A stretch of 64,000 bases of DNA from Candidatus Margulisiibacteriota bacterium (lineage in GTDB: Bacteria > Margulisbacteria > Termititenacia > CAZZFK01). The translations under genes and the position numbers were made by a program. This document shows, one piece after another, positions 5,036-44,219 of the stretch (position 1 is its first letter; the number at the start of each line of letters is the position of its first letter). The DNA is taken from NCBI GenBank assembly GCA_042562495.1, contig JBHPMC010000002.1, positions 12,425 to 76,424 on the forward strand. The letters are read 5' to 3'. The notes under the pieces were generated by a model. The model saw only the letters and a list, made by a program, of their open reading frames with translations, was not told the origin of the DNA and made no database searches.

Positions 5036-6469
5036 ATGATCAAACAGATAAGCTTACTTCTGGTCATTAGCTTTCTTTTAGTATCGGGCTGTGCGACCAA
5101 TCCGGTCAGTAAAGAATCAGAATTCATGCTTTTTTCCGAACAACAGGAAGTGGAGATGGGCAAGGAGTATCACCCGCAGATATCCAAATTATATATTGTT
5201 TATGATGATCCTGAGTTGATCGCCTATGTTGATCGTGTAGGCCTGAAAGTGGCGGCTGTATCTCATCGTTCAAATCTGGATTATACGTTCACGGTGCTTG
5301 ATTCCCCGATCGTAAATGCTTTTGCTGTGCCCGGGGGTTATGTCTATGTGACCAGGGGTATCCTGGAGCGCATGAATTCCGAAGATGAGCTGGCCAGTGT
5401 CTTAGGCCATGAGATCGGCCATGTGTCTGCACGGCATTCTATGCAAAGAATGTCCCAGCAATATGGTTTGATGGGAGTGTTCTTAGGTGTCCAGCTTTTT
5501 GGCAATAGTGAGGATTTTGAGCAGTGGTCGCCCTGGGTCAATGCCGGGGCTTATCTTACCTTGTTGAATTACGGGCGAGAAGCCGAATATCAAGCCGATC
5601 GTTTGGGAGCAGAGTATGCTGTGGCCGCCGGTTATTCTCCAAAAGGGAGCACGGATATGCTGCGCATGATCCGCAAGCTGCATGATAGTGAGCCTAATTT
5701 TATCCAGGAATTAATGGCTACCCATCCGCCGCCGGCAGTACGTGTGGATCGTGCCAGGCACACTCAAAGAGAATTTGAAAGCGATGTAGGTATGCTTGCA
5801 GAAAAAGATAATGAATATAAAACGGCGATCGCCGGGATGGTGATCGGCCCTAATTTGCACCATGGCCAAGCTATAGGCAATGCCTATTTTAATAAAGCCT
5901 ATGATTGTGTTTTTGAATTTCCAGCCAGCTATACTACCTATATTGGCCAGCCCGGCTATTTATTCTACGGAAAAGAACAAGATATAGAAGCTTTAGCACT
6001 GCAAAAAGTCGATCTTGAAAAAAATATGTCTTCCAGGGATTTTGCTAAAAGCATCGAAACTCAGGCCAAGATAAGCCCTAAATTGACAGGATCCAAGACC
6101 GTGGCCGGGATCCCGGGCTGGATAGCAAAATATGAACAGGGAAAAGATGATAACAAACAATATATCTCTAGGTTCTATTGGGTTAAAGAAAAGACCGGTT
6201 ATATTTTAAGCTGCGTGACCAGCTTACAGAACAGAGGGCGCAACGACAGTACTTTTAATGAGGCGATCGCTACATTTCGTGAGCTGACAGATGCAGAAAA
6301 AAATAAATTAAGTATCAAAAAGCTTGCTGTGCATACAGTGTTAAAGGGAGAGACGATCGTTTCGATAGCTAAAAAATACAATACAACTTCTGAAAAGATC
6401 AAGGAATATAACGCTTTGGAAACAACAAATCTAATGGACGGTCAAAAACTGAAGATACCTTCTTCTTAA
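5036..6469 (+). CDS. M48-family zinc metalloprotease with C-terminal LysM domain (lipoprotein-like signal)
   Basis: 477 aa. Signal ending LLVSGC, HEIGHV zinc motif, and a C-terminal LysM-like segment HTVLKGETIVSIAKKYNTTSEKIKEYN. Confidence 0.8.
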   Translation: MIKQISLLLVISFLLVSGCATNPVSKESEFMLFSEQQEVEMGKEYHPQISKLYIVYDDPELIAYVDRVGLKVAAVSHRSNLDYTFTVLDSPIVNAFAVPGGYVYVTRGILERMNSEDELASVLGHEIGHVSARHSMQRMSQQYGLMGVFLGVQLFGNSEDFEQWSPWVNAGAYLTLLNYGREAEYQADRLGAEYAVAAGYSPKGSTDMLRMIRKLHDSEPNFIQELMATHPPPAVRVDRARHTQREFESDVGMLAEKDNEYKTAIAGMVIGPNLHHGQAIGNAYFNKAYDCVFEFPASYTTYIGQPGYLFYGKEQDIEALALQKVDLEKNMSSRDFAKSIETQAKISPKLTGSKTVAGIPGWIAKYEQGKDDNKQYISRFYWVKEKTGYILSCVTSLQNRGRNDSTFNEAIATFRELTDAEKNKLSIKKLAVHTVLKGETIVSIAKKYNTTSEKIKEYNALETTNLMDGQKLKIPSS

Positions 6470-6852
6470 AAATCCTGTCCTACGGTCGAAGTTACCCCGA
6501 TACCGCCGCGGATATTATATATCGTGCGGACCATTAGTTGTTTTGGTCCTAAGATCTTTTTAAGGTCCTGATAGATCCTATCGGTGGCGGCTTCCTGGTA
6601 AATGCCGACGTTGCGAAAAGAAATGATATAGTATTTCAAGGATTTTAATTCGATGCATTTTCCTTTGGGGCTATATTTTATGATCAATTTGGCGAGGTCC
6701 GGCAGGCCGGAAAAAGGACAGACCGCAGAAAATTCTTCGGTCACGATCTCAATGGTTTGTTCTGTGCCATCAAAAGGGAAGGTTTCTAAAAGATCCGGCT
6801 GGATATTTTCAGGCCCGTTGAACTTAAAGATCTTGCCTTCGGCTTGAGCCAT
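6466..6852 (-). CDS. queF: NADPH-dependent 7-cyano-7-deazaguanine reductase
   Basis: 128 aa. EFSAVCPFSGLPD catalytic Cys motif and unimodular QueF length. Confidence 0.85.
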   Translation of the reverse strand: MAQAEGKIFKFNGPENIQPDLLETFPFDGTEQTIEIVTEEFSAVCPFSGLPDLAKLIIKYSPKGKCIELKSLKYYIISFRNVGIYQEAATDRIYQDLKKILGPKQLMVRTIYNIRGGIGVTSTVGQDF

Positions 6853-12155: not shown

Positions 12156-15100
12156 ATGTCTGATGTTAAAAAAAGTGATCATATAAGATCAGAACAAATC
12201 TACTCAGCAAAAATCTATACAGATCTTAAAGGAAAACAACCGCCTATAATATCTGTAACTGGTTCAACTACAATTGATGATATTGAGAAACAAATATCCA
12301 AGCCAGGGAAATATCTACTTCGATTTATTGATCATAATGGACAGAAAAAAGAAATAATAATCGATAACAAAATTGGTTCTAAGAAATATGCTGAAGAAAG
12401 GATCAAATTAGCAGATTTTATTCGCAAGCAAGGCTTAGAAATTAACGCAAATACTTTAAAAATATATCAGGATAAATATATTCAAAACTATAAACAGGGC
12501 AACATAAAGTTAGAGGATATTAAAGAGTATATGTTGCAGCTTGATAATATATTCAAGGCCTCAAAACTAGATATTCAATCCGATGATATTAATAAATATA
12601 AAACAGATCTGCTTGGATTTTTAGTGCAAGGCTTAAAGCATGAAGCAGAAGTGTATTTGAAGAGAACAGCTAACTCTTTGGAAATGAAGCGAGTAAAACA
12701 AGAAGAAAAAAAATACATCAATAAAATATCAGAACAGCAGGAATTACAGAATAAATACTTAAAACAAATAAAATATCATGAACAGAAGATCAAAGAATAT
12801 GAGGCTAAGCTTGACTATGGATATAACAAGGAGATCGATGAATTGCAAAAGGAGATCGAACAGATTACCAGCAGTAGTAATGCTTTCGCTTGGGGTGCGA
12901 TCGCAGAGGATTATTCTCAAACAGGAAGGGCGCAGTCGGGATTTGCAAAACCCTCTTTGGATCAACAGAAGAGATATATTGAATGTAAACTTAAATTGGA
13001 TAAATTACTTTATGCGGAATCCAGAAGAGTTGCCTTAAGACAAAGCGAGTATAAAGAAAAAATACTTAAAGCTGAAGGAAAGATAAAAGTGCTGGAATTA
13101 TTATTTCATGATACACAGCAATTGCAGCTTGAGAGCAAATTAAGGATATTCAATCGACGTCGTTATCAGGCGAACCTTTTAATAAAGGATAGATTGTATC
13201 AATTAGAAGCTGAAGGTTATATCAAGATAGCCGATGCTCAATTACTATTTAAACAAAAAGATGCTTTCATTAATGATCTATTCATAAAGGGCAAGCTTAA
13301 TTCAAAATATGCCAAGGTTATCAAAGCGATACCCAAAGATAAGTTAAGGGATCTTAAGGAACTGTGGCAAGGAATTATTGATGAATTTAATGGTAAAGCA
13401 AATGAAGAAAATCAATATCTAGGTTTCAGTAGAAGTGAATATACAGCTGTTTTCAAGAATAAGGAATTCCATGAATATCTGATCTTGAAGAAAAACGAAG
13501 AATTATATGCTCTAGGTGCTTATGAACATCTAAATCCTTATATTGCTGGTGGTAGTAAAAGGAATTATTCGCAATATATATACTATAGAAAAACTTCAGC
13601 AACTTATGAAAATAAATATTTGCAGCAAGCGATCGATAATTTAAAAGATCCTGAGGTCGATTTATATTTTTATGATTTTGGAAAATATTCCGATTATTCA
13701 GATGAAGAGCTTGGAAAACTTGTTCCGGCAAAACACAGAAGGCAGCAAAATAATCAGCATTATAAAGTTTGCTTGAGTTACTATAAACATATCCTTAGAT
13801 ATGAAGATATGTTGAATACTCTTGATACAAAATTTGCAACCAATAAGGATGAAGAATTAAAATTACTAGGAAATATAATGAGAACAAGCGCTGCAATTGA
13901 TAAGCAAAAGCAGCTCATACAAAGAAGAATGGGATATGCTAAGAAAGTAATAAATAGCCCCGACTATGATAAAAATGAAAAAAGAAATCAAATAGAAAGG
14001 ATAGAGTATTTTAAAAAAACTTTAGCAGTATTGGAATTTGAAGCAAATAAGATCGCATCTATTAAAGAATTTGCCTTAAAAAAATCTTCCTTTATGCAAA
14101 CCATGAGCCATGAGATGCTTGAGTTAGGTCCAAAATTACAAGAATTAATAGTTACCATAAATAGTTATAAAAGAATAAAAGATAGTAATAGACCTAGAAG
14201 ATCAGAGTTGTTAAAAGAATATGCTGCAAAATCTGAAAAATTAGCAAAAGAGATACGTAATTCATCAGAATACAATTATTTCAAGATGTGGGTAAGTCAT
14301 TATTCTGCGCGGGGAGAAATGTCATTGCTATATGGTGTTTTCAATGATCCTGCCTTGGTAGGGATGAGAAATATTATTGACTTATTTAAACCAATTAAAG
14401 GTCAAGGTTTGGCACGAGAAGGAGCGCTTGGAATAGAAGATCTGCTGGAGGAAGCAGAAGATATGGATAATCTGATTAGAATTTCTTATAGAGACCTGAT
14501 AATTATCTCTGCAGCAGTTGTAGGTGCAGTTGTGGCCACTGCAATGATCGCAGCCCCGGAACCGGGATCAAGTGTTGCTGGTGTATTCTTGTTAAAAACA
14601 GCAATAGCTGCACTAGGAGCAACTATAGGGCAAGAAGGGGGAAAGATGATTGTCTCTGTATTAGATCACAGATTTGAATATAATTTTAATATTAAAGAAA
14701 TCGGTATAAATTATCTAGTGAATTTCGGTATGATGCTAATTTTTATGGGATTAGGACATGCTGCAGGAAAAGGTTTGCAGATGTTGAGTGGGGCAAAAGT
14801 ACCATTACTATCTTCAGCAAGCGGGAAATTAGTAGCTTTAGCAAATCATACCAGCAAATTAACCCATCTGGGAGGATTTAAAGCTGGAGAAGTATTTGTT
14901 GTGCAATTTGCCAAACAGACTGGTGGAGAAGTATTTGAAGAAATTGTAGAGGAGACAGCTCAAAGAGTACACCCTGTATTAGGTTTTTTTGCTTCCACTT
15001 GGAATTCAATGGATGGTGTAAATGTCGGTAAAGTGCAGTTGGCCGATCTCAATATGACCTATAAAAATAAGTTCACCAAAATAGAAGGCGGAAAAGACGT

Positions 15101-17546
15101 GAACATAATCACATATGAATATGCTCAGGGGAAGACAGAGCGCTTAATCACTGAATTGAAAAAAAGGCTAGGCAAACAGGATTTTGAAGAAAAGGTCACA
15201 GTAGATAAAAAAAGCGGCAGGGTGATCTGTGAGATCACCGATAGTAATGGCAAAACATATCGGCAGATTTTTGATCCAACTCAGGAAAGTATGGAAATGC
15301 GCACTCTACAAAACAAGGATCATTTTTTACTAAGTAATGATCTTGCAGAAGATTACAAGCTTGTTCGTGGTGAAGGATGTTATCTTTATACTGATATCAA
15401 TATTGATGGGCGCCTTTCATTAGCAGAATATCTGATGAAAAACCATGGTTTTGTATTAAAAACAGGAGATATTCATGGCGACTTTACTCTAGTCAAAGGT
15501 AATCAAGAGATAGACTTTAAGAAAAGCAAAGGATTAAAAGATACAGCAAAATATAATACACTGGTGGCCAAACATCCTGGTTTGGAAATTGCAGTAGCTT
15601 ATGATCCTCAGTCCGGCGAGTTCTATCTTCCCAAAAAAGGTACTGTTTTTAATATTAATGATATTAGGATCGAGGGAGATACGGAAATGACCTTGGCAGC
15701 AAGGGAAGGATTTGCCGATCTTTTTAAATATCATCAAGACCAGATCATCTTTTTAAAGAAAAAAGTTGAAAATGGAGAGATCAGCAGAAAACAATACGAT
15801 AAAAATATTCTTAAATTAAAGCAAGAATTTCTGACGGATCTAAAAACCTTTTTAGAGCAAAATAACATTAAAAATGCAGGGAAAATATACAAAAGAGCAA
15901 ATGATTTTATAAATAATAAGAAATTTTGGGGATTAGATGGGGATTTATATATTGAAGTATTTATTGCGGATACATATACTTCCCCGACCAGAATATATGC
16001 AGAAAGGGTTCCAGATCATTGCCGTTTTGCCCATGAACATCCCAAGGGTCAACCGCGTAGCAAAATAGATCAAGAGGCAGGGCTAGATCTGATCACACGC
16101 AATCGGGATGGATCATTAGGTTTAGAAATAATCAGGGGTAGCGATACTTTTAATCATAGGATAGCTGCAGCAGGAGAGGTTGAAGGGATAAAAGGGCTTG
16201 AAGAGCTATATAAATTATATGGCCGAGAAATGCCCGATGTAGGGCAGCTGCCAATAGCAAAAGAATTTTATGGGGATGTAAGTATTGAATTGGCTGTTGA
16301 AAATGCAAATGATGTAAATGTTAATAGTACTACTTCCTTTAAGAAAAAAGCTCTGGCATTGTTAAAATCGGGTTCATTTTCAAAGCCAGATATTGAAACA
16401 ATGAAAATGTGGGCAGATGAATATATCCAGTTGAATGGCAAGGATAAATTTATACAAGATTATAAAAAAATATTATACGGATCGGAAAAAAATCTTATTG
16501 TTAAAAAGAATAATCTTGTTAATCATCTTGAAGCCCAGGGTACAATAAAAGCAGATATAGAATTAGATCTAAAAAAGAGATTAAAAAGTTTAGAGAATAA
16601 TATCGATGATAGGATCAATGATTTTAAAGAGGAAGTGCTAAATTATGAAACTAAAAATGAATATGAACAGGCTATCGATGATTATATAGAAAAGCATGGC
16701 ACAGATGAATTTATAAATACTTTCAGAAAGCGTATTTCAAATATTGAAGAAATGAATAATGAAAAGCTTGGTGAGACAAGAGAATATCTAAATGGTATTA
16801 ATACGAATAAACTAAAACAAAACTTAGAAACGGCGCAAAATACAGTTGATGTTTATTATAAATATATAGAAATGCACAGGACAGGGCAAGATAGCCTTAG
16901 TTATGAGCTTATTAAAGAGAATCATGATACTGCTCCAGATATTAGCGAACAGCTAATATATGACTATTTATTGGCTGAAGCAAATAAAAGTTTTAATAGA
17001 GCTCTCGAGGTGCTGGGTATGAAAGATGATGGAAGCTATACAGATGAGCAAAAGAACCATTTAATTGATTTTTATGATAATTATTATAACAAGATCACTG
17101 AACCTGATCATAAGAAAATAATTGATGAACCTATTAAAAATGATCCCCAAAGTATGCTTGATACGATACTTGCAAAAAACAAACCTGAAATGAATACTGC
17201 TATGATAAGTTATTTAAAGAGCGTAAGAGGTGAAAGTTTAATAAAAACAATGTTAAAGAAAAAGTTCAATATTGAGGTCATTGAAGTTCTCCATGAATAT
17301 ACACTGCCTTCACCAGGAAAGAATAAAAAGAAACCGATTTTAATAATGGCTATAAAAGTAAAAGGATTTGAATATGGTGGTCAGAAATTTTCAGGGGAAC
17401 GAGTTATTGAGCTATTATCTCATGATCCGCATGGGATACATATGGATATTCAGACAAAACCTAGAGCAAAAACCCATAAGGCAGATCATCAATTCTTCTT
17501 TTCCAAATATGTAACGATAGCAGAGTTCTTTTCAGGCAAATACTAA
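12156..17546 (+). CDS. Giant hypothetical protein (1796 aa): coiled-coil N-half, central multi-TM segment, unknown C-half
   Basis: Single uninterrupted ORF with RBS GGGGGT 6 nt upstream. Lys/Glu/Asn-rich heptad-like N-terminal region of about 750 aa. Hydrophobic cluster IIISAAVVGAVVATAMIAAP...VFLLKTAIAALGATIG...LVNFGMMLIFMGLGHAAG. No enzymatic motif that I recognise. Clearly AT-richer than its neighbours. Confidence 0.75.
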   Translation: MSDVKKSDHIRSEQIYSAKIYTDLKGKQPPIISVTGSTTIDDIEKQISKPGKYLLRFIDHNGQKKEIIIDNKIGSKKYAEERIKLADFIRKQGLEINANTLKIYQDKYIQNYKQGNIKLEDIKEYMLQLDNIFKASKLDIQSDDINKYKTDLLGFLVQGLKHEAEVYLKRTANSLEMKRVKQEEKKYINKISEQQELQNKYLKQIKYHEQKIKEYEAKLDYGYNKEIDELQKEIEQITSSSNAFAWGAIAEDYSQTGRAQSGFAKPSLDQQKRYIECKLKLDKLLYAESRRVALRQSEYKEKILKAEGKIKVLELLFHDTQQLQLESKLRIFNRRRYQANLLIKDRLYQLEAEGYIKIADAQLLFKQKDAFINDLFIKGKLNSKYAKVIKAIPKDKLRDLKELWQGIIDEFNGKANEENQYLGFSRSEYTAVFKNKEFHEYLILKKNEELYALGAYEHLNPYIAGGSKRNYSQYIYYRKTSATYENKYLQQAIDNLKDPEVDLYFYDFGKYSDYSDEELGKLVPAKHRRQQNNQHYKVCLSYYKHILRYEDMLNTLDTKFATNKDEELKLLGNIMRTSAAIDKQKQLIQRRMGYAKKVINSPDYDKNEKRNQIERIEYFKKTLAVLEFEANKIASIKEFALKKSSFMQTMSHEMLELGPKLQELIVTINSYKRIKDSNRPRRSELLKEYAAKSEKLAKEIRNSSEYNYFKMWVSHYSARGEMSLLYGVFNDPALVGMRNIIDLFKPIKGQGLAREGALGIEDLLEEAEDMDNLIRISYRDLIIISAAVVGAVVATAMIAAPEPGSSVAGVFLLKTAIAALGATIGQEGGKMIVSVLDHRFEYNFNIKEIGINYLVNFGMMLIFMGLGHAAGKGLQMLSGAKVPLLSSASGKLVALANHTSKLTHLGGFKAGEVFVVQFAKQTGGEVFEEIVEETAQRVHPVLGFFASTWNSMDGVNVGKVQLADLNMTYKNKFTKIEGGKDVNIITYEYAQGKTERLITELKKRLGKQDFEEKVTVDKKSGRVICEITDSNGKTYRQIFDPTQESMEMRTLQNKDHFLLSNDLAEDYKLVRGEGCYLYTDINIDGRLSLAEYLMKNHGFVLKTGDIHGDFTLVKGNQEIDFKKSKGLKDTAKYNTLVAKHPGLEIAVAYDPQSGEFYLPKKGTVFNINDIRIEGDTEMTLAAREGFADLFKYHQDQIIFLKKKVENGEISRKQYDKNILKLKQEFLTDLKTFLEQNNIKNAGKIYKRANDFINNKKFWGLDGDLYIEVFIADTYTSPTRIYAERVPDHCRFAHEHPKGQPRSKIDQEAGLDLITRNRDGSLGLEIIRGSDTFNHRIAAAGEVEGIKGLEELYKLYGREMPDVGQLPIAKEFYGDVSIELAVENANDVNVNSTTSFKKKALALLKSGSFSKPDIETMKMWADEYIQLNGKDKFIQDYKKILYGSEKNLIVKKNNLVNHLEAQGTIKADIELDLKKRLKSLENNIDDRINDFKEEVLNYETKNEYEQAIDDYIEKHGTDEFINTFRKRISNIEEMNNEKLGETREYLNGINTNKLKQNLETAQNTVDVYYKYIEMHRTGQDSLSYELIKENHDTAPDISEQLIYDYLLAEANKSFNRALEVLGMKDDGSYTDEQKNHLIDFYDNYYNKITEPDHKKIIDEPIKNDPQSMLDTILAKNKPEMNTAMISYLKSVRGESLIKTMLKKKFNIEVIEVLHEYTLPSPGKNKKKPILIMAIKVKGFEYGGQKFSGERVIELLSHDPHGIHMDIQTKPRAKTHKADHQFFFSKYVTIAEFFSGKY

Positions 17547-29447: not shown

Positions 29448-30772
29448 CCAGAAATTTTAAAGTTCTTAAGATGTTTATATAGGTCCGGTATCGATTTAAA
29501 GATGCTGCCAATATAATTCCATATGTCATAATCATCTATCTCCATAGCTATCTTAGTATCTATGTGTTCTTTGTGTTTTTCAATATGATCGTTCTTGTCC
29601 TGATTCTTTGTGTCTAGTTCGTTCAGCTTATTTTGAGCATTTTCCAGCGTAATTTCTCTGGTGGGGATGCCTAGTAGCTTGCTGAGATCGACAATGACCT
29701 GGTTCTTTTGATATGAGCTCATTTTCTTAGATAGGCCTTTTAATTTTTCGTCGGCTTTTTTGAAATTCTGTTTCCTTTTTTCGTAGCGTTTGGAGACCTT
29801 TTCTAGGATATCGCTTAATTTTACTTTAAATCGATAGCCTGTATATTCTTTTGGCAGAAGTTTAATGAATTTCTTGAAGAAATATGGCTGAGTGTTGCGT
29901 TTTAAGAACGGAGAAAGATGCTTTTTGTAGTATTGGGATAAGCGTCTTTTAGTAAAAAAGCTGCGTAGGAGCATAAAAACGATCACTGCTAAGGCAGCGA
30001 AGAACCAGAAATCCTTGATAAAAAAGGCGGTTATCTGTTCCATGCCCAGGACCAAAGTGACCTTTTGATGAGCCAATTTAGCGATCAATTTTACCATAGT
30101 GACGAAATGGGTAAGGATCTTTCCTGAAGCACCCAGACTGAATATAGTGGTAATAGCTTTATTCTTGCGGCTTAAGTATTTCTTTAAAGGAATATACAGC
30201 GGTGCTATCTCCTGGCTTAGCTTCCTGTTGACCAGTTCATCGATGATATCCTCAGTGTTGACGATGATCTCTTCGATAAGTTCTGCATTGAGCATATCCC
30301 TGTGAAAATATTTATCGATATCCTTATCGATCTGGCTGCGTACATATTCGCTGGTGATCTTGGCAAAATCTGTGCTGATAGAATTATCAAATAGTTTATC
30401 TCTTTCTGTAAAAAGAAAGTGGGTGGTAGTTGAAGCAATGATCGCATAAGTACGTATGAACCGGACGATCTTCCTGGTGATCTTCTTCTTTTGGATCTCG
30501 CTTATTTTCGAAAGCGGGATAGGATTCTCGACCATATGTTTATCCAGTACCGCCTGTAATTGGTTCTCGTCCAGGCAATTATCGTTTTGGAAGAGGATCT
30601 TATCTATGTTCTTTTGTTTGGCGAATAAGACCGATACAACATTTTTGGACATAGAGGTCATATAGCGGCTGAGCTTGATATCATCGCTGGACATATCAGC
30701 ATGGACCTTGAAGAATTTACGCTCCAAGATGTTCTTATTTCGTTCCTTTGTGCTTATGATCTTATTGAACAT
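29444..30772 (-). CDS. Hypothetical membrane-anchored protein (442 aa)
   Basis: AT-rich ORF with a central hydrophobic segment (FFIKDFWFFAALAVIVFMLL). No known motifs. Confidence 0.5.
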   Translation of the reverse strand: MFNKIISTKERNKNILERKFFKVHADMSSDDIKLSRYMTSMSKNVVSVLFAKQKNIDKILFQNDNCLDENQLQAVLDKHMVENPIPLSKISEIQKKKITRKIVRFIRTYAIIASTTTHFLFTERDKLFDNSISTDFAKITSEYVRSQIDKDIDKYFHRDMLNAELIEEIIVNTEDIIDELVNRKLSQEIAPLYIPLKKYLSRKNKAITTIFSLGASGKILTHFVTMVKLIAKLAHQKVTLVLGMEQITAFFIKDFWFFAALAVIVFMLLRSFFTKRRLSQYYKKHLSPFLKRNTQPYFFKKFIKLLPKEYTGYRFKVKLSDILEKVSKRYEKRKQNFKKADEKLKGLSKKMSSYQKNQVIVDLSKLLGIPTREITLENAQNKLNELDTKNQDKNDHIEKHKEHIDTKIAMEIDDYDIWNYIGSIFKSIPDLYKHLKNFKISG

Positions 30773-40360: not shown

Positions 40361-40732
40361 ATGAAAAAACATACTGTAAAGAACAAACAAAATCCGGAAG
40401 ATAAAATGCTCAAAAAGATCTTAAAGGTCCTTGAAGATAAAAAGGCAGAGGATATTCAGATCTTTAAAGTGCAAGACCTGGTCAGTTATACGGATTATTT
40501 TGTTTTTTGTACCGGGACGAGCAATCCTCATTTAAAGGCCTTGCACGATTCTATTAAAAAAGACCTAAAAAAAGATAAGCATAAGATCCTCGGCAGCGGA
40601 GCTAAAGATAGCGGTTGGGTCGTGCTCGATTGCGGGATGGTCGTTGTCCATTGTTTAAACCAAAAGCAAAGAGACCGCTACAGGCTGGAAGAGCTCTGGC
40701 AGGATGCGGATATTGTCCACCACCACTATTAA
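40361..40732 (+). CDS. rsfS: Ribosome silencing factor RsfS (Iojap)
   Basis: 123 aa. DYFVFCTGTSNPHLKAL and WVVLDCGMVVVHC. Confidence 0.85.
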   Translation: MKKHTVKNKQNPEDKMLKKILKVLEDKKAEDIQIFKVQDLVSYTDYFVFCTGTSNPHLKALHDSIKKDLKKDKHKILGSGAKDSGWVVLDCGMVVVHCLNQKQRDRYRLEELWQDADIVHHHY

Positions 40733-40804
40733 ATAATCCTGATAATTAAAGGGAAAAGCAATCCAAGTAATTGGCGACGCATTGCGTGTAGTAAAAATTA
40801 ACTC

Positions 40805-40842
40805 TTGACATACATTAGGTTATAAAGTATACTAAGTATACT
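40805..40842 (+). promoter_or_regulatory. Sigma-70-type promoter with overlapping tandem palindromic operator
   Basis: TTGACA (40805-40810), a 17-nt spacer, then TATACT (40828-40833). Two copies of the 8-bp palindrome AGTATACT sit at 40826-40833 and 40835-40842. Confidence 0.55.
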
Positions 40843-40850
40843 TGATTGAT

Positions 40851-40933
40851 GGGGGGCGGATATCGAGATCTTAGGTAGGCGTGGGGACGCATATCGAAGG
40901 AAGCAGCAAAGCCGTGGGGGGCGCATAAGGATG
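40851..40933 (+). repeat. Three G-rich direct repeats at about 32-nt spacing in the leader of the RHH gene
   Basis: GGGGGGCGGATATCGAGA (40851), GGGGACGCATATCGAAGG (40883) and GGGGGGCGCATAAGGATG (40916). Confidence 0.5.
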
Positions 40934-40940
40934 ATGGGTC

Positions 40941-41111
40941 ATGAAGAAGCCTAGGGATGAGACTATTACATTTAAGGCTGATAGAAAGCTCAAGGATGAT
41001 CTGGAGGGATTCTGTAAGAATTCAGCCGGATTGATCGGGTTTGAGGTCACCGTATCTGCATTCTGCCGCCAGGCAGTCCAGGAAAAACTGCAAAAATTAA
41101 AAAAAACATAA
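40941..41111 (+). CDS. Ribbon-helix-helix (CopG/Arc-like) small DNA-binding protein, unannotated (56 aa)
   Basis: Below the ORF-track cutoff. My translation is MKKPRDETITFKADRKLKDDLEGFCKNSAGLIGFEVTVSAFCRQAVQEKLQKLKKT. The pattern is strand (ITFKAD), helix, helix. A palindromic operator lies at its promoter. Confidence 0.55.
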   Translation: MKKPRDETITFKADRKLKDDLEGFCKNSAGLIGFEVTVSAFCRQAVQEKLQKLKKT

Positions 41112-41249
41112 AAACCTCTGATTTTCCGGATAAAAAAGCACTATAACCACCATAAAAAAGAACATTTTCCAGGAAAGCTGTAAGCTCTAAATTTACACAG
41201 CTTCACAATATTTCGTTAAATCATAAAAAGACCGTTGATAAAAAGTAAT

Positions 41250-41276
41250 TGGGATATTTAATTTATGCTTACGATA
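41250..41276 (+). promoter_or_regulatory. Sigma-28-like promoter motif (weak upstream half TGGGAT)
   Basis: TGGGAT atttaatttatg CTTACGATA, 29 nt upstream of ATG 41306. Confidence 0.4.
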
Positions 41277-41305
41277 TCTGTTTGCAAAAAAGAAAGGAGA
41301 CATAT

Positions 41306-42124
41306 ATGCCGGTATTTATCAGCCCCAGTGCTTATTGTATGTACGGAAATTTTTATTTTAATTCAGGGATCGATTTTAATATGAACAAGGAAAATAATTG
41401 GGATAAAAAGCCGGGTTTAAAATTGTTTAACGTAAGCGTAGAATTTGAGACTGCATTTAAATCAGAGGCGATCGAGACTATCCAATATTATCTATTAAGA
41501 GCAAAAGATGAAAAAGAGGAGGAGTATTTATATAATAAAATAAAGAACTACCGCAGTTGGCGGTCATACTGGGATGGGAAAATCGAAGCTAATTTGGATG
41601 CAACTAGAATGGGTTTTCATGTTAAGTATGGTGTTTTGTGGCAGCCCAAAGGGAATATAAATATTTATGCGGCCACTGCTTATAAAAATGCTTCACAAAC
41701 ATTAGCAGAACATACACAACTTAAGTCCAATATTGGTTCATTGGATCTGGGGATAGCCTATATGTTTAAAACTGAAAAATTAAGGATCGTGCCTAAACTT
41801 AATTTATCTGGCGGATATTATATAAATAATATTGAAAATACAGATTATTTATATAAAGATGTCCCTTATGCAACTAAAGATTATGAAATGTCTTATAAGA
41901 ATAAACCGAAGTATTTTGCTGCACAGCTCGGGATAGAAATGAATTGGCAAATTACACCGAAAGTAGGTTTAGGTAGCGCAATAAATGTCTATTACAATAA
42001 AGTAGATCATGCCAGAGCGATCCCCAATGGAATAGAAGTAAAACGGAATTTAGATAATATTTCTATCGAGTTCGATATACTTAAGGTAGACCTGGCCATT
42101 ATTGGAGATTTTCTGCTCTTATAA
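41306..42124 (+). CDS. Hypothetical beta-rich protein (272 aa)
   Basis: Start at ATG 41306 with RBS AAGGAGA 41294-41300. The track's 41249 start would include the promoter motif. Alternating Tyr/Gly/Asn beta-strand-like pattern, with no clear signal peptide. Confidence 0.5.
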   Translation: MPVFISPSAYCMYGNFYFNSGIDFNMNKENNWDKKPGLKLFNVSVEFETAFKSEAIETIQYYLLRAKDEKEEEYLYNKIKNYRSWRSYWDGKIEANLDATRMGFHVKYGVLWQPKGNINIYAATAYKNASQTLAEHTQLKSNIGSLDLGIAYMFKTEKLRIVPKLNLSGGYYINNIENTDYLYKDVPYATKDYEMSYKNKPKYFAAQLGIEMNWQITPKVGLGSAINVYYNKVDHARAIPNGIEVKRNLDNISIEFDILKVDLAIIGDFLLL

Positions 42125-42183
42125 AAAAGAGAATTTTCATTATTTTCCATAGTTTCTATGAATCTCACGGGACGAGAAAGAAT

Positions 42184-42210
42184 TGAAATTTCCTGAAATT
42201 ACTTACGATA
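42184..42210 (+). promoter_or_regulatory. Sigma-28-like promoter motif
   Basis: tTGAAAT ttcctgaaatta CTTACGATA, 17 nt upstream of ATG 42228. Confidence 0.6.
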
Positions 42211-42227
42211 TATTATTAGAAGAAATC

Positions 42228-43247
42228 ATGACAACTGGGAAAGGATTTATTTTTATGAATACCAAGATTATCGCAAGAAATGCAGAAAAAAAAGATTTCA
42301 AATATAAATTATTAAAAATATTCAGCCCATCAAGTTTTGTCAAAAGTGTAAGTCCAAAGGATTCTATTAAATATCTTTTATCAATCCATATTAGTGACGC
42401 CAGAAAAGTCCTAGGAAAGATTGGAGAAGAAAAAACAGCTGCCATTTTGGCAAAAGCAGCACCGAAGGATGCTGCATCATTATTATATTCTCTTCTAGAA
42501 AACTGGGCTCAAAAAACCTTACCAAAGATAGAAATAAACCAGGCTTTTAAAATAATAGATCAAATGTGTAAACTAGACCGATCCGGCCAACAACTTAGTT
42601 ATACTAATACTAAGTATATCAACCGTACCGCTAAGATCTTGTCCGACATGCATGATGATTATAAAAACATAGCGACTGTAAAAGCCCTCCTCTCAAAGTT
42701 ATCTCTGGATAACAAAATGATAATATTTGAGGGGATTCTTTATACAGAGGATGCCGTTAAATTATTAAGACTATTAAGCCTAAAAGATACTTTGTTAATA
42801 TTAAGAAAAATGAGCGATTTCGATAAAGCCAAGAAGATCTTTCGTACCATAAATCCCGACAATGAAGAAGAGAGAAATATTTTTAAAACACTGCCAGCAA
42901 ATCCCCGCAATGAAGAAATTGCAAATATTTTTAATAAACTACCAGCAAAAGATCTGGATAAATACTTCGATTGGATGGCATATAGCGCAAAATTACCAAA
43001 AGAATATTTGGCAGATATCCTACGTATGATGAAGCCAACTAAAGCAGCTAAAGCATTGTCTAAAATGCTCCCTGCATTGGCTGCAGACATTCTTGCTCAA
43101 ACAACAGCGAAGGAATCTAAGTCTTTTTTCGCTAAAATGAAACCAGATAATGTAAAAGAAATTAAGCAATCTATTAGAATCCGGGGAACTGATTTATTTA
43201 AGCTCAAACGAGAAATTGTAAATTATGCACTTAACCGAAAAACTTAA
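42228..43247 (+). CDS. Hypothetical helical-repeat protein (MgtE_N/MotE-like repeats)
   Basis: Start at ATG 42228. Repeats of the type AAILAKAAPKDAASLL and AAKALSKMLPALAADILAQ resemble MgtE N-terminal/MotE/FliG-like helical repeats. Confidence 0.45.
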   Translation: MTTGKGFIFMNTKIIARNAEKKDFKYKLLKIFSPSSFVKSVSPKDSIKYLLSIHISDARKVLGKIGEEKTAAILAKAAPKDAASLLYSLLENWAQKTLPKIEINQAFKIIDQMCKLDRSGQQLSYTNTKYINRTAKILSDMHDDYKNIATVKALLSKLSLDNKMIIFEGILYTEDAVKLLRLLSLKDTLLILRKMSDFDKAKKIFRTINPDNEEERNIFKTLPANPRNEEIANIFNKLPAKDLDKYFDWMAYSAKLPKEYLADILRMMKPTKAAKALSKMLPALAADILAQTTAKESKSFFAKMKPDNVKEIKQSIRIRGTDLFKLKREIVNYALNRKT

Positions 43248-43368
43248 AGAAAAAACATCACATTGTATTAAAAGACAATCATGGGAAAATATTTTCTAAA
43301 AACAAAGTCTTGCCAGAGCGGATCTCTTCATACTATTTAATCATTCGGCACCGGTCGAAACTGAAAAA

Positions 43369-43384
43369 TGGTGGAGATGAGGGG
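43369..43384 (-). repeat. Copy (15/16) of the tRNA-Ala T-stem-3'half-to-CCA 16-mer, 108 bp downstream of the tRNA
   Basis: Minus strand CCCCTCATCTCCACCA here versus CCCATCATCTCCACCA in the tRNA (43477-43492). Confidence 0.8.
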
Positions 43385-43476
43385 CAATCGTGCAGGTTGC
43401 GCGCTGCATTTCGCCAGGCCGAAAGGTATTCGGCCGGCTCAAGATTTGAACCACTGGTAGTATTGAAGTTTTTCTC
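43385..43476 (-). repeat. Hairpin-rich cassette between tRNA-Ala and its 3'-end copy
   Basis: Hairpins TGCAG/CTGCA (43391-43408) and GGCCGAA/TTCGGCC (43417-43435), plus a T-loop-like GATTTGAAC. Architecture and the GCTGCATT 8-mer are shared with 61180-61276. Confidence 0.5.
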
Positions 43477-43553
43477 TGGTGGAGATGATGGGAGTTGAAC
43501 CCACGACCCCTTGCATGCCATGCAAGTGCTCTAGCCAGCTGAGCTACATCCCC
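43477..43553 (-). tRNA. tRNA-Ala (anticodon GGC), CCA encoded
   Basis: Hand-folded as GGGGATG TA GCTC AGCTGGCTA GAGC A CTTGC ATGGCAT GCAAG GGGTC GTGGG TTCAACT CCCAT CATCTCC ACCA. The G3:U70 alanine identity pair is present. Confidence 0.9.
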
Positions 43554-43623
43554 ATAGATTTTTAAAAGATCATGTAGAAATTTAACCTATCAGCTTCGCT
43601 GCAGTCCTGAGCGAAGTCGAAGG

Positions 43624-43636
43624 GCTACATCCCCAT
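43624..43636 (-). repeat. 13-nt copy of the tRNA-Ala 5' end (ATGGGGATGTAGC), 81 bp upstream of the tRNA
   Basis: Plus-strand gctacatccccat occurs at 43543-43555 (the tRNA 5' end) and again at 43624-43636. Confidence 0.8.
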
Positions 43637-43751
43637 CAAAGAATCAAAGAGCAGTTAGTATGCCTTATATAAATATTAGTTGTCAACTAAATAGCTAGAA
43701 ACTAAGGCAAATGCGTAAGCTGAAGCATAAAAGTGAAAATATATTACAATA

Positions 43752-44219
43752 TTAATTAATCTCAGGCGGAGTATCTTTAAAAGTATTAATCATGGAAAGT
43801 TGTTCTTTGCAATCTCTAAGCCAATCTATAGCATCAAAGAACGCACATCGATAATTAGTTGCCTTTTCAAAAGAATCTATCGCATTTTTACGATCCAGTA
43901 GATAGTAATAAGCTTTACCCAAATAAAAATAGGCTTCAGCAGTATCTATCGGTATACCAATATTATCAGTATTATTATTTTGATCATAATTAACGGAAGT
44001 TACAGATAAATATTTATTTAAATAGTGCACTGCCAATTCATATTCCTTATATTTAAGATAAAAACATCCTAGTATAAAGTTTGCTTCAGGAGAATTAGGA
44101 TATTGTTGTATAACTAATTTGCATTTCTCAAATAGTACATTATCCCGCCCGTTTTTAAGCAGAGTATTTGAATTTTTAAATATATCTTTTATTGGCGATA
44201 ATATTATTTTATTTAGCAT
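43752..44219 (-). CDS. TPR-repeat protein
   Basis: 155 aa. TPR-like repeats (EANFILGCFYLKYKEYELAVHYLNKYL; AEAYFYLGKAYYYLLDRKNAIDSFEKA). Confidence 0.6.
   Translation of the reverse strand: MLNKIILSPIKDIFKNSNTLLKNGRDNVLFEKCKLVIQQYPNSPEANFILGCFYLKYKEYELAVHYLNKYLSVTSVNYDQNNNTDNIGIPIDTAEAYFYLGKAYYYLLDRKNAIDSFEKATNYRCAFFDAIDWLRDCKEQLSMINTFKDTPPEIN

Follow-up and report, generated by a model that had tools for sequence, protein, structure and literature searches.

RESULTS

An intact tRNA-Ala gene stands between copies of its own two ends

We analyzed a 64,000-nt stretch of a Candidatus Margulisiibacteriota genome (GenBank assembly GCA_042562495.1, contig JBHPMC010000002.1, positions 12,425 to 76,424 of the forward strand), referred to here as the window. 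It carries an intact tRNA-Ala(GGC) gene with a short copy of its 5' end upstream and a short copy of its 3' end downstream, and we call these two outer pieces the shell. A sequence-only reading of this DNA had likened the ends of the shell to those of transfer-messenger RNA (tmRNA, encoded by ssrA) or tRNA-Ala. It had offered three explanations, namely a degenerate or split ssrA-like gene interrupted by a tRNA-Ala cassette, nested scars of integrase-mediated events, or a transcript processed into tRNA-Ala plus two RNA pieces that reassociate. We think that the shell probably consists of end fragments that arose from the tRNA-Ala(GGC) gene at the DNA level and that its precursor carries along passively or almost passively. 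The core features are listed below; here and throughout, window coordinates refer to the minus strand unless marked (+).

43636-43624 (-): outer 5' fragment, ATGGGGATGTAGC, an exact copy of 43555-43543, which is tRNA-Ala positions -2 to +11
43553-43477 (-): intact tRNA-Ala(GGC) with G3:U70 and an encoded CCA (ARAGORN; Rfam tRNA model, 63.9 bits)
43384-43369 (-): outer 3' fragment, CCCCTCATCTCCACCA, made up of the T-stem 3' strand, the acceptor 3' strand and ACCA, followed by TTTTT (43368-43364)

ARAGORN and Rfam agree that the inner tRNA gene is complete, as had been read from the letters. Both copies were reproduced as well: the outer 13-mer is identical to the 5' context of the tRNA, and CCCCTCATCTCCACCA matches the last 16 nt of the inner gene at 15 of 16 positions. 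The 16-mer begins 92 nt beyond the tRNA end, a distance that had been given correctly, and ends 108 nt downstream of the tRNA. On the 5' side, the "81-nt spacer" described before is the start-to-start distance from the outer copy to the real tRNA start; the true spacer, the gap between the two 13-mers, is 68 nt.

Arithmetic from base composition puts the expected number of chance occurrences at ~1e-6 per copy within 300 nt. No further copy of either tRNA end was found in the 64 kb with up to 3 mismatches in 16 nt, the vicinity of the rsfS gene included. As controls, we used tRNA-Ala genes of other species with the same GGGGATG/CATCTCC acceptor stem, obtained by a pattern scan of genome contigs (n = 121 among the matches listed). 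This stem is widespread, as the scan matched many unrelated phyla. A copy of the 5' 11-mer within 300 nt upstream was present in one of the 121 controls, and a 3' copy within 300 nt downstream in none. The two flanking copies are genuine and far above chance. An assembly artefact is an unlikely source, as repeats of 13 and 16 nt fall below the k-mer length of any assembler.

Two other origins were tried and set aside. A repeated hairpin element of the REP/MITE type was dismissed, as blastn of 43300-43700 against the window returned no copies elsewhere, trailer included. Decayed tandem tRNA copies were sought by aligning the interiors of the leader and trailer with the tRNA, with each other and with the flanks, and no significant alignment resulted; the strongest trace of a tandem copy was a weak collinear GGTTAAATTTCTACATGATCT / GGTTCAACTCC-CATCATCT match (p = 0.15). 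Separately, CATCCCCACCAGAGAAA at 29653-29669 (-), within a 442-aa open reading frame (ORF), agrees at 16 of 17 positions with the tRNA 3' end extended by the first 6 nt of the trailer. This match is probably due to chance (blastn E-value 0.31).

Related loci date the two fragments

The radical-SAM and LCP proteins encoded nearby match proteins of a Candidatus Margulisiibacteriota metagenome-assembled genome at 100% identity. For comparison, we collected five related Margulisbacteria loci (L155, L156, L159, L160 and L162), anchored on the LCP protein adjoining rsfS. In L159 and L156, the tRNA-Ala(GGC) gene ends in ...AGGGGTTCAA(A/C)TCCCCTCATCTCCACCA, and its last 16 nt match the outer 3' fragment of the window at 16 of 16 positions. 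Up to position 48, the window's inner tRNA is identical to that of L159 and has one D-loop difference from that of L156. The live T-arm (43505-43489) departs from both, with a T-stem of GTGGG/CCCAT versus AGGGG/CCCCT; pair 50:64 has gone from G-C to U-A, and A49 to G. By this comparison, the T-stem of the live gene is derived and its change compensatory, with the outer fragment keeping the ancestral letter at position 64. The single mismatch in the 3' copy therefore marks a change in the live gene and not in the fragment.

L159 (73% LCP identity) is the closest relative carrying tRNA-Ala. Its tRNA follows rsfS on the same strand, and an outer 5' copy lies 113 nt before it; a 3' copy downstream was not found in this locus. 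A TTGACA-18-CATACT promoter-like site is common to the window and L159. The block TAAGGCATACTAACT...TTCTTTGAT..GGGGATGT is homologous between the two (local alignment score 48 vs 18.4 +/- 2.5 in shuffles) and runs from the -10 region through ATGGGGATGT, which stands at the same place after the promoter in both. The promoter-leader-tRNA unit of L159 (2338-2581 (+)), compared with window 43686-43477 (-), is inverted relative to rsfS, and the window, L160 and L162 agree in orientation. One inversion breakpoint is no more than 30 nt from the -35 element; the other lies just past the tRNA.

Copies of either end are absent from the other three of the four tRNA-bearing relatives. L162 (48% LCP identity) has a plain tRNA-Ala(GGC) convergent with rsfS, 8 nt apart, and a promoter-like site, TTGGCA-17-GATAAT, that ends 11 nt before the tRNA. 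L160 (47%) has the promoter of L162 with two differences in 49 nt and a leader longer by 92-102 nt. A different 2.5 kb, encoding a CLC channel, a GST and a glyoxalase, separates rsfS from the tRNA 3' end in L160; the locus contains no copy of either tRNA end, and the 2.5-kb insertion has no attachment-site (att) or other flanking repeat. L156 (62%) has a plain tRNA-Ala(GGC) located elsewhere. L155 (72%) has no tRNA closer than 2.2 kb to rsfS. Synteny anchored on the radical-SAM neighbour led to relatives at 65% and 47% identity, with no tRNA there. It had been argued beforehand that plain tRNA genes in relatives would make the flanking copies specific to one strain. Such plain genes do occur in L162 and L156, and L160 is also free of copies; L159 keeps the 5' copy.

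The 3' fragment is thus limited to the window's lineage among the available loci. The 5' fragment, shared by one relative (L159), would be older than the split between the window and L159, or else regenerated at the same site. Because the 5' copy is shared with L159, we read the 5' event as older than the 3' event.

A variable neighborhood with no recognisable mobility genes

The following features place the tRNA gene in its surroundings.

40361..40732 (+): rsfS, the context anchor (Pfam)
40941-43247: three lineage-specific ORFs, within 2.6 kb of low-GC DNA between rsfS and tRNA-Ala (GC profile)

The block 40733-43368 has a GC content of 0.35-0.38, and its ORFs encode 56 aa, 291 aa (no family) and 354 aa (MgtE_N-like domain). 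No mobility gene was recognisable in this block, and no integrase or mobile-element domain was found in the ORFs neighbouring the tRNA-Ala locus. Every relative has different DNA in the interval from rsfS to the tRNA 3' end, with unrelated genes in L160, L155, L156 and L159. Gene order in these loci shows that in the ancestral state rsfS and the 3' end of tRNA-Ala(GGC) face each other, and that the leader and the DNA on the 3' side of the tRNA are both variable. Elsewhere in the window, a 1796-aa ORF at 12156-17546 (+) occupies the part with the lowest GC (0.315-0.354), where GC and AT skew are strongly positive.

The outer shell compared with tmRNA

Part of the resemblance to tmRNA that had been described does exist. 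Like ssrA products, the shell has an Ala-type acceptor helix (outer ends GGGGAUG / CAUCUCC-ACCA, with G3:U70, a discriminator A and CCA) and UUCGAC soon after the 5' strand; the tmRNA-typical GGGGnnG(n6)UUCGAC is present in the 5' piece as GGGGATG-TAGCCC-TTCGAC. The acceptor-type outer helix comes with the tRNA-Ala copies and is therefore not diagnostic of tmRNA. The outer pieces are complementary, the 7-bp helix with G3:U70 included, because between them they copy the two strands of one tRNA-Ala acceptor stem. Moreover, the outer 3' 16-mer equals the 3' end of the relatives' tRNA, and this outer end is therefore tied to the tRNA-Ala gene and not to ssrA.

Searches with dedicated tools, which the sequence-only reading had proposed, did not place a tmRNA on the shell. 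ARAGORN found no tmRNA in the 64 kb, and the Rfam tmRNA models (cmscan of 43200-43800, E<=10) matched nothing on the shell; a tmRNA model matches the inner tRNA only, at 38.6 bits, below the gathering score of 47. The missing 5' half of the T-arm was confirmed: the outer CCCCT is preceded by ACGATTG and before that by CCTGC, neither of which supplies a complementary 5' T-stem strand, and in the folds this stretch belongs to a different hairpin. Inspection by eye of every frame in the two pieces gives only AAKLIG* and EKLQYYQWFKS*, neither like known tags (compare ADNYGYALAA* from the tmRNA of metagenomic locus L008), in keeping with the earlier failure to see a convincing tag. There are no pseudoknots in the shell. 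As for the P2-like pairing, TTCGCTCAGG (43615-43606) can indeed pair with CCTGGCGAA (43418-43410) over 9 bp plus a bulge. Outside the tRNA-derived parts, however, the best duplex that the two pieces can form is no better than in 1000 dinucleotide shuffles (duplexfold p = 0.16), and minimum-energy folds put both strands in local hairpins and lack the long-range pairing. The gene for SmpB (smpB) was not found within the 64-kb window, and there was no Margulisbacteria tmRNA among the retrieved loci. Known two-piece tmRNAs have a permuted gene order, and that of the shell is not theirs. In contrast to tmRNA, then, the shell is without T-arm, tag frame, pseudoknots or a covariance-model match, and its outer ends can be explained by tRNA-Ala. 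We conclude from these comparisons that the shell is not a tmRNA, and the idea of a degenerate or split ssrA finds no support.

A functional split alanine acceptor, tmRNA-like or tRNA-like, would be a different matter. Here, leader and trailer would stay paired after excision of the tRNA, be charged by alanyl-tRNA synthetase (AlaRS) and take on a non-canonical role. The outer helix has the alanine identity pair by construction, and minihelix charging by AlaRS is established knowledge, reportedly going back to Francklyn and Schimmel in 1989. Cofolding prefers the dimer over the monomers by ~7 kcal/mol, and UUCGAC sits at a tmRNA-like position in the 5' piece. Against this, the shell has neither T-arm nor pseudoknots nor a tag frame with a degron-like peptide at its end; it is missed by ARAGORN and by every Rfam tmRNA model, and past the inherited 7 bp the pairing does not reach significance. 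The arrangement is absent at all four related tRNA-Ala loci, and a 23-nt motif of the 5' piece had no exact match in 241 million metagenome records. We give this explanation next to no credence. The proposal of a processed, reassociating two-piece RNA likewise found no support; the outer helix is not conserved, as L159 keeps the 5' copy only.

The predicted transcript and E. coli tRNA-linked repeats

Three further features would belong to the transcription unit of the tRNA.

43657..43686 (-): promoter-like site TTGACA-18-CATACT, upstream of the outer 5' copy
43554..43623 (-): leader interior, with a 7-bp hairpin (43616-43594) and an A/U-rich tail; fold z=-2.8
43385..43476 (-): trailer interior, with predicted hairpins at 43452-43436, 43435-43417 and 43415-43383

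Only one other promoter-like site was seen upstream of tRNA-Ala, inside the end of a TPR gene. There is no terminator-like site between tRNA-Ala and the outer 3' repeat, nor within the unit. Neither the tRNA nor the L159 leader aligned significantly with the leader interior. The hairpins reported before in the 92-nt interval were recovered as three predicted by folding, the third of which extends 2 nt into the outer 3' fragment. Rfam has no family for the trailer.

A family of tRNA-linked repeats (TLRs) has been described in Escherichia coli (PMC8144298). A TLR unit follows a tRNA gene directly, is ~100-180 nt long, is presumably co-transcribed with the tRNA, and repeats the tRNA 3' end (from the T-loop or T-stem to CCA) in its last 16-19 nt. 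At tyrT/tyrV of E. coli MG1655, we found exact 19-mers AATCCTTCCCCCACCACCA of the tRNA-Tyr 3' end, one in the interval separating the two genes and three on the downstream side at a period of 178 nt, and the annotated small RNA RttR ends exactly on one of them; copies of the 5' 12-mer were not found there. The window trailer (43476-43369) similarly begins at the base after CCA on the same strand as the tRNA, and its 16-nt repeat is slightly shorter than the E. coli 19-mers. Unlike the E. coli TLRs, which lie on the 3' side only and in tandem series, the window has a single unit and a 5' fragment in addition. Its copy is also one base off the live gene, where the gene and not the copy has changed, and no E. 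coli TLR resembles the trailer in sequence.

Displaced tRNA-gene fragments and the possibility of att scars

Fragments of tRNA genes are also left behind by integration. The Islander database lists 3' fragments for 3760 islands and 5' fragments for 159, and under its rule a displaced fragment has the orientation of the gene and lies upstream if it is a 5' fragment or downstream if it is a 3' fragment (PMC4383910). Crossover sites in the T-stem are common at tRNA-gene integration (PMC4383910; PMC9897764). The shell could accordingly be read as nested att scars, in which two integrase insertions, one with a core at the 5' end and the other with a core at the T-stem and 3' end, were followed by deletion of nearly all of both elements, leaving 68 and 92 nt.

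Of the explanations offered before, this one comes nearest to the evidence in its geometry. Orientation and sides are exactly those of displaced fragments, the 3' fragment begins in the T-stem region, and the boundaries of identity are sharp. The relatives mark the locus as a hotspot of variable DNA, and turnover of elements at one att site would account for the differing leader interiors that the window and L159 have behind one 5' core. The same comparison also shows where the reading strains. There is no island, and no integrase or mobile-element gene was found adjoining the locus. Spacers of only 68 and 92 nt are far too short, calling for two independent, near-complete deletions that both spared the repeats. 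Unlike displaced fragments, those of the window flank one gene on both sides, and the variable 2.6 kb is found past the 3' fragment and not between it and the tRNA. The 2.5-kb insertion of L160 has no att repeat, and exact matches to either shell end were not found on viral contigs. On this evidence we regard nested att scars as unlikely, at roughly a one-in-several chance.

Truncated tRNA-like units recur in metagenomes

A metagenome scan for GGGGATGTAGC followed by GGGGATGTAGCTCAG 60-90 nt later returned 28 loci. About 17 of them are not tandem tRNAs; they contain truncated tRNA-like units before a real tRNA, mostly Ala with GGC or CGC, and Rfam has no family for the upstream units in these 17 loci. 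Some loci have two to three units in tandem with a period of 76-99 nt (81 and 78 nt in L007).

Loci with truncated tRNA-Ala-like units: L007, L127, L128, L130-L132, L135, L136, L138, L140, L142, L146, L147

A unit is built of the acceptor 5' strand, the D-arm and a stable non-anticodon hairpin (often TCCCGA-N4-8-TCGGGA), with no acceptor 3' strand; examples are at L007 2682-2916 (+), L131 1-236 and L132 9110-8809 (-), and in L140, L142, L136, L135 and L146. The hosts span several phyla, including a Fimbriimonadaceae metagenome-assembled genome (L007) and contigs resembling Bacteroidota and the Candidate Phyla Radiation. As in the window, the 5' fragment (11-60 nt in the metagenomes) lies near the expected tRNA start after a promoter; a strong hairpin and an A/U-rich tail come next, and the unit is placed 76-99 nt ahead of the real tRNA. 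The metagenomic units usually retain more of the tRNA than the window does (D-arm, non-anticodon hairpin and half a T-arm) and are often in tandem.

The units have only the tRNA-derived part in common. Since they are rare (1 of 121 controls) and share nothing else, sporadic DNA events fit them better than a conserved RNA family does.

A 3' fragment is also present in three of the 12 such tRNA-Ala loci with enough downstream sequence (L131, L132 and L135). These copies are exact, 13-16 nt long, and lie 320-410 nt downstream of the tRNA; a partial 3' copy was seen in none of 120 control tRNA-Ala genes (0/120 vs 3/12; Fisher p = 5.9e-4). The pieces on either side of the tRNA in L131 and L135 have an overlap of 40-45 nt and a non-anticodon hairpin in common, and make up a single tRNA-Ala-like pseudogene in two parts. 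In L132 and L135, the downstream fragment corresponds to the 3' three-quarters of a tRNA-Ala-like pseudogene whose 5' counterpart is upstream of the tRNA. An intact 79-aa GIY-YIG nuclease ORF (L132 8516-8755 (-)) lies between tRNA-Ala(GGC) and the 3' fragment, and L135 has a frameshifted GIY-YIG remnant in the same position (~6280-6531 (-)). A homing-type cassette nested in a tRNA-like gene could underlie these two loci.

Three archaeal contigs, L139 (5999-6184 (+)), L141 (2483-2317 (-)) and L151, with archaeal RNase P RNA or 23S rRNA nearby, also carry a unit upstream of a tRNA that opens with the tRNA's own first 11-15 nt. In L139 and L141, the unit ends in the complement of its start (GCTACAT/GCTACATC), giving a long hairpin, and the L139 tRNA has an insertion near the anticodon.

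DISCUSSION

We favor an origin of both fragments in DNA-level events, either short segmental duplication or insertion, at a tRNA locus that in this lineage is prone to rearrangement. The 5' fragment (-2 to +11) lies just past the promoter, at the expected start position of the tRNA. The 3' fragment would have kept the ancestral T-stem letter, and the working gene would have changed pair 50:64 afterwards. A single promoter would then give one transcript, in which the tRNA follows a leader of ~97 nt and precedes a trailer of at least 108 nt with the end ...CCACCA-UUUUU. The tRNA would be set free by RNase P cleavage at the inner G+1 (43553) and by the usual 3' enzymes, with leader and trailer as by-products. 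The trailer would be of the same kind as the E. coli TLRs, for example RttR, and may be trimmed to its own CCA like a tRNA end. Fragments of tRNA genes like these belong to a known kind.

Several observations weigh against this explanation. No residual similarity proves a tandem duplication, and no integrase or island proves site-specific integration. The 108-nt trailer is unusually well folded (-33.4 kcal/mol, z=-4.1). In addition, ATGGGGATGT is kept in the window and L159 although their leader interiors cannot be aligned, which hints at constraint or repeated regeneration. Conservation of the 5' copy and folding of the trailer are thus hints against pure debris.

These same observations suggest that the outer copies may be selected for a role in cis in the production of tRNA-Ala. 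The 5' copy could act in the promoter's initial transcribed region, or it could pair with the 3' copy in a helix of leader and trailer that would guide or time processing or provide the trailer with a tRNA-like 3' end, a role put forward for the E. coli TLRs. The promoter and ATGGGGATGT are kept in L159 and nothing after them is, the full 266-nt fold is closed by the outer 7-bp helix (z=-3.2), and by eye the metagenomic 5' units begin about where a tRNA would start after a promoter. RttR is annotated as a small RNA, and for TLRs that follow 5S rRNA, processing has been linked to the repeated 3' end and the RNAs accumulate (PMC8144298). The comparative evidence runs the other way. The outer helix is not conserved, with L159 lacking the 3' copy and L156, L160 and L162 lacking both; units of this kind are rare among tRNA-Ala genes with this acceptor stem, share only their tRNA-derived part and match no Rfam family. 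A role in cis is therefore improbable to our minds, with a small share of the probability. A broader proposal takes the nested layout here and in at least three unrelated metagenomic lineages as a functional design, either a split anticodon-less Ala acceptor or a processing or regulatory module of tRNA-Ala, and we consider it very improbable.

With the shell attributed to end fragments of tRNA-Ala, a false lead is removed, as the locus would hold no hidden or split tmRNA. tRNA-linked repeats have been known in E. coli since 1978, mostly without an assigned function. The window would extend them to a candidate phylum and in a two-sided version, in which the 3' repeat is joined by a 5' fragment beside the promoter. 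Its 3' fragment preserves, as a small "fossil", the trace of a compensatory change that the live tRNA underwent, and the relatives allow the pieces to be dated. Such fragments can mislead the annotation of tRNA and tmRNA genes. Finally, paired 5' and 3' fragments around tRNA-Ala in several phyla point to a recurring way of rearranging tRNA genes.

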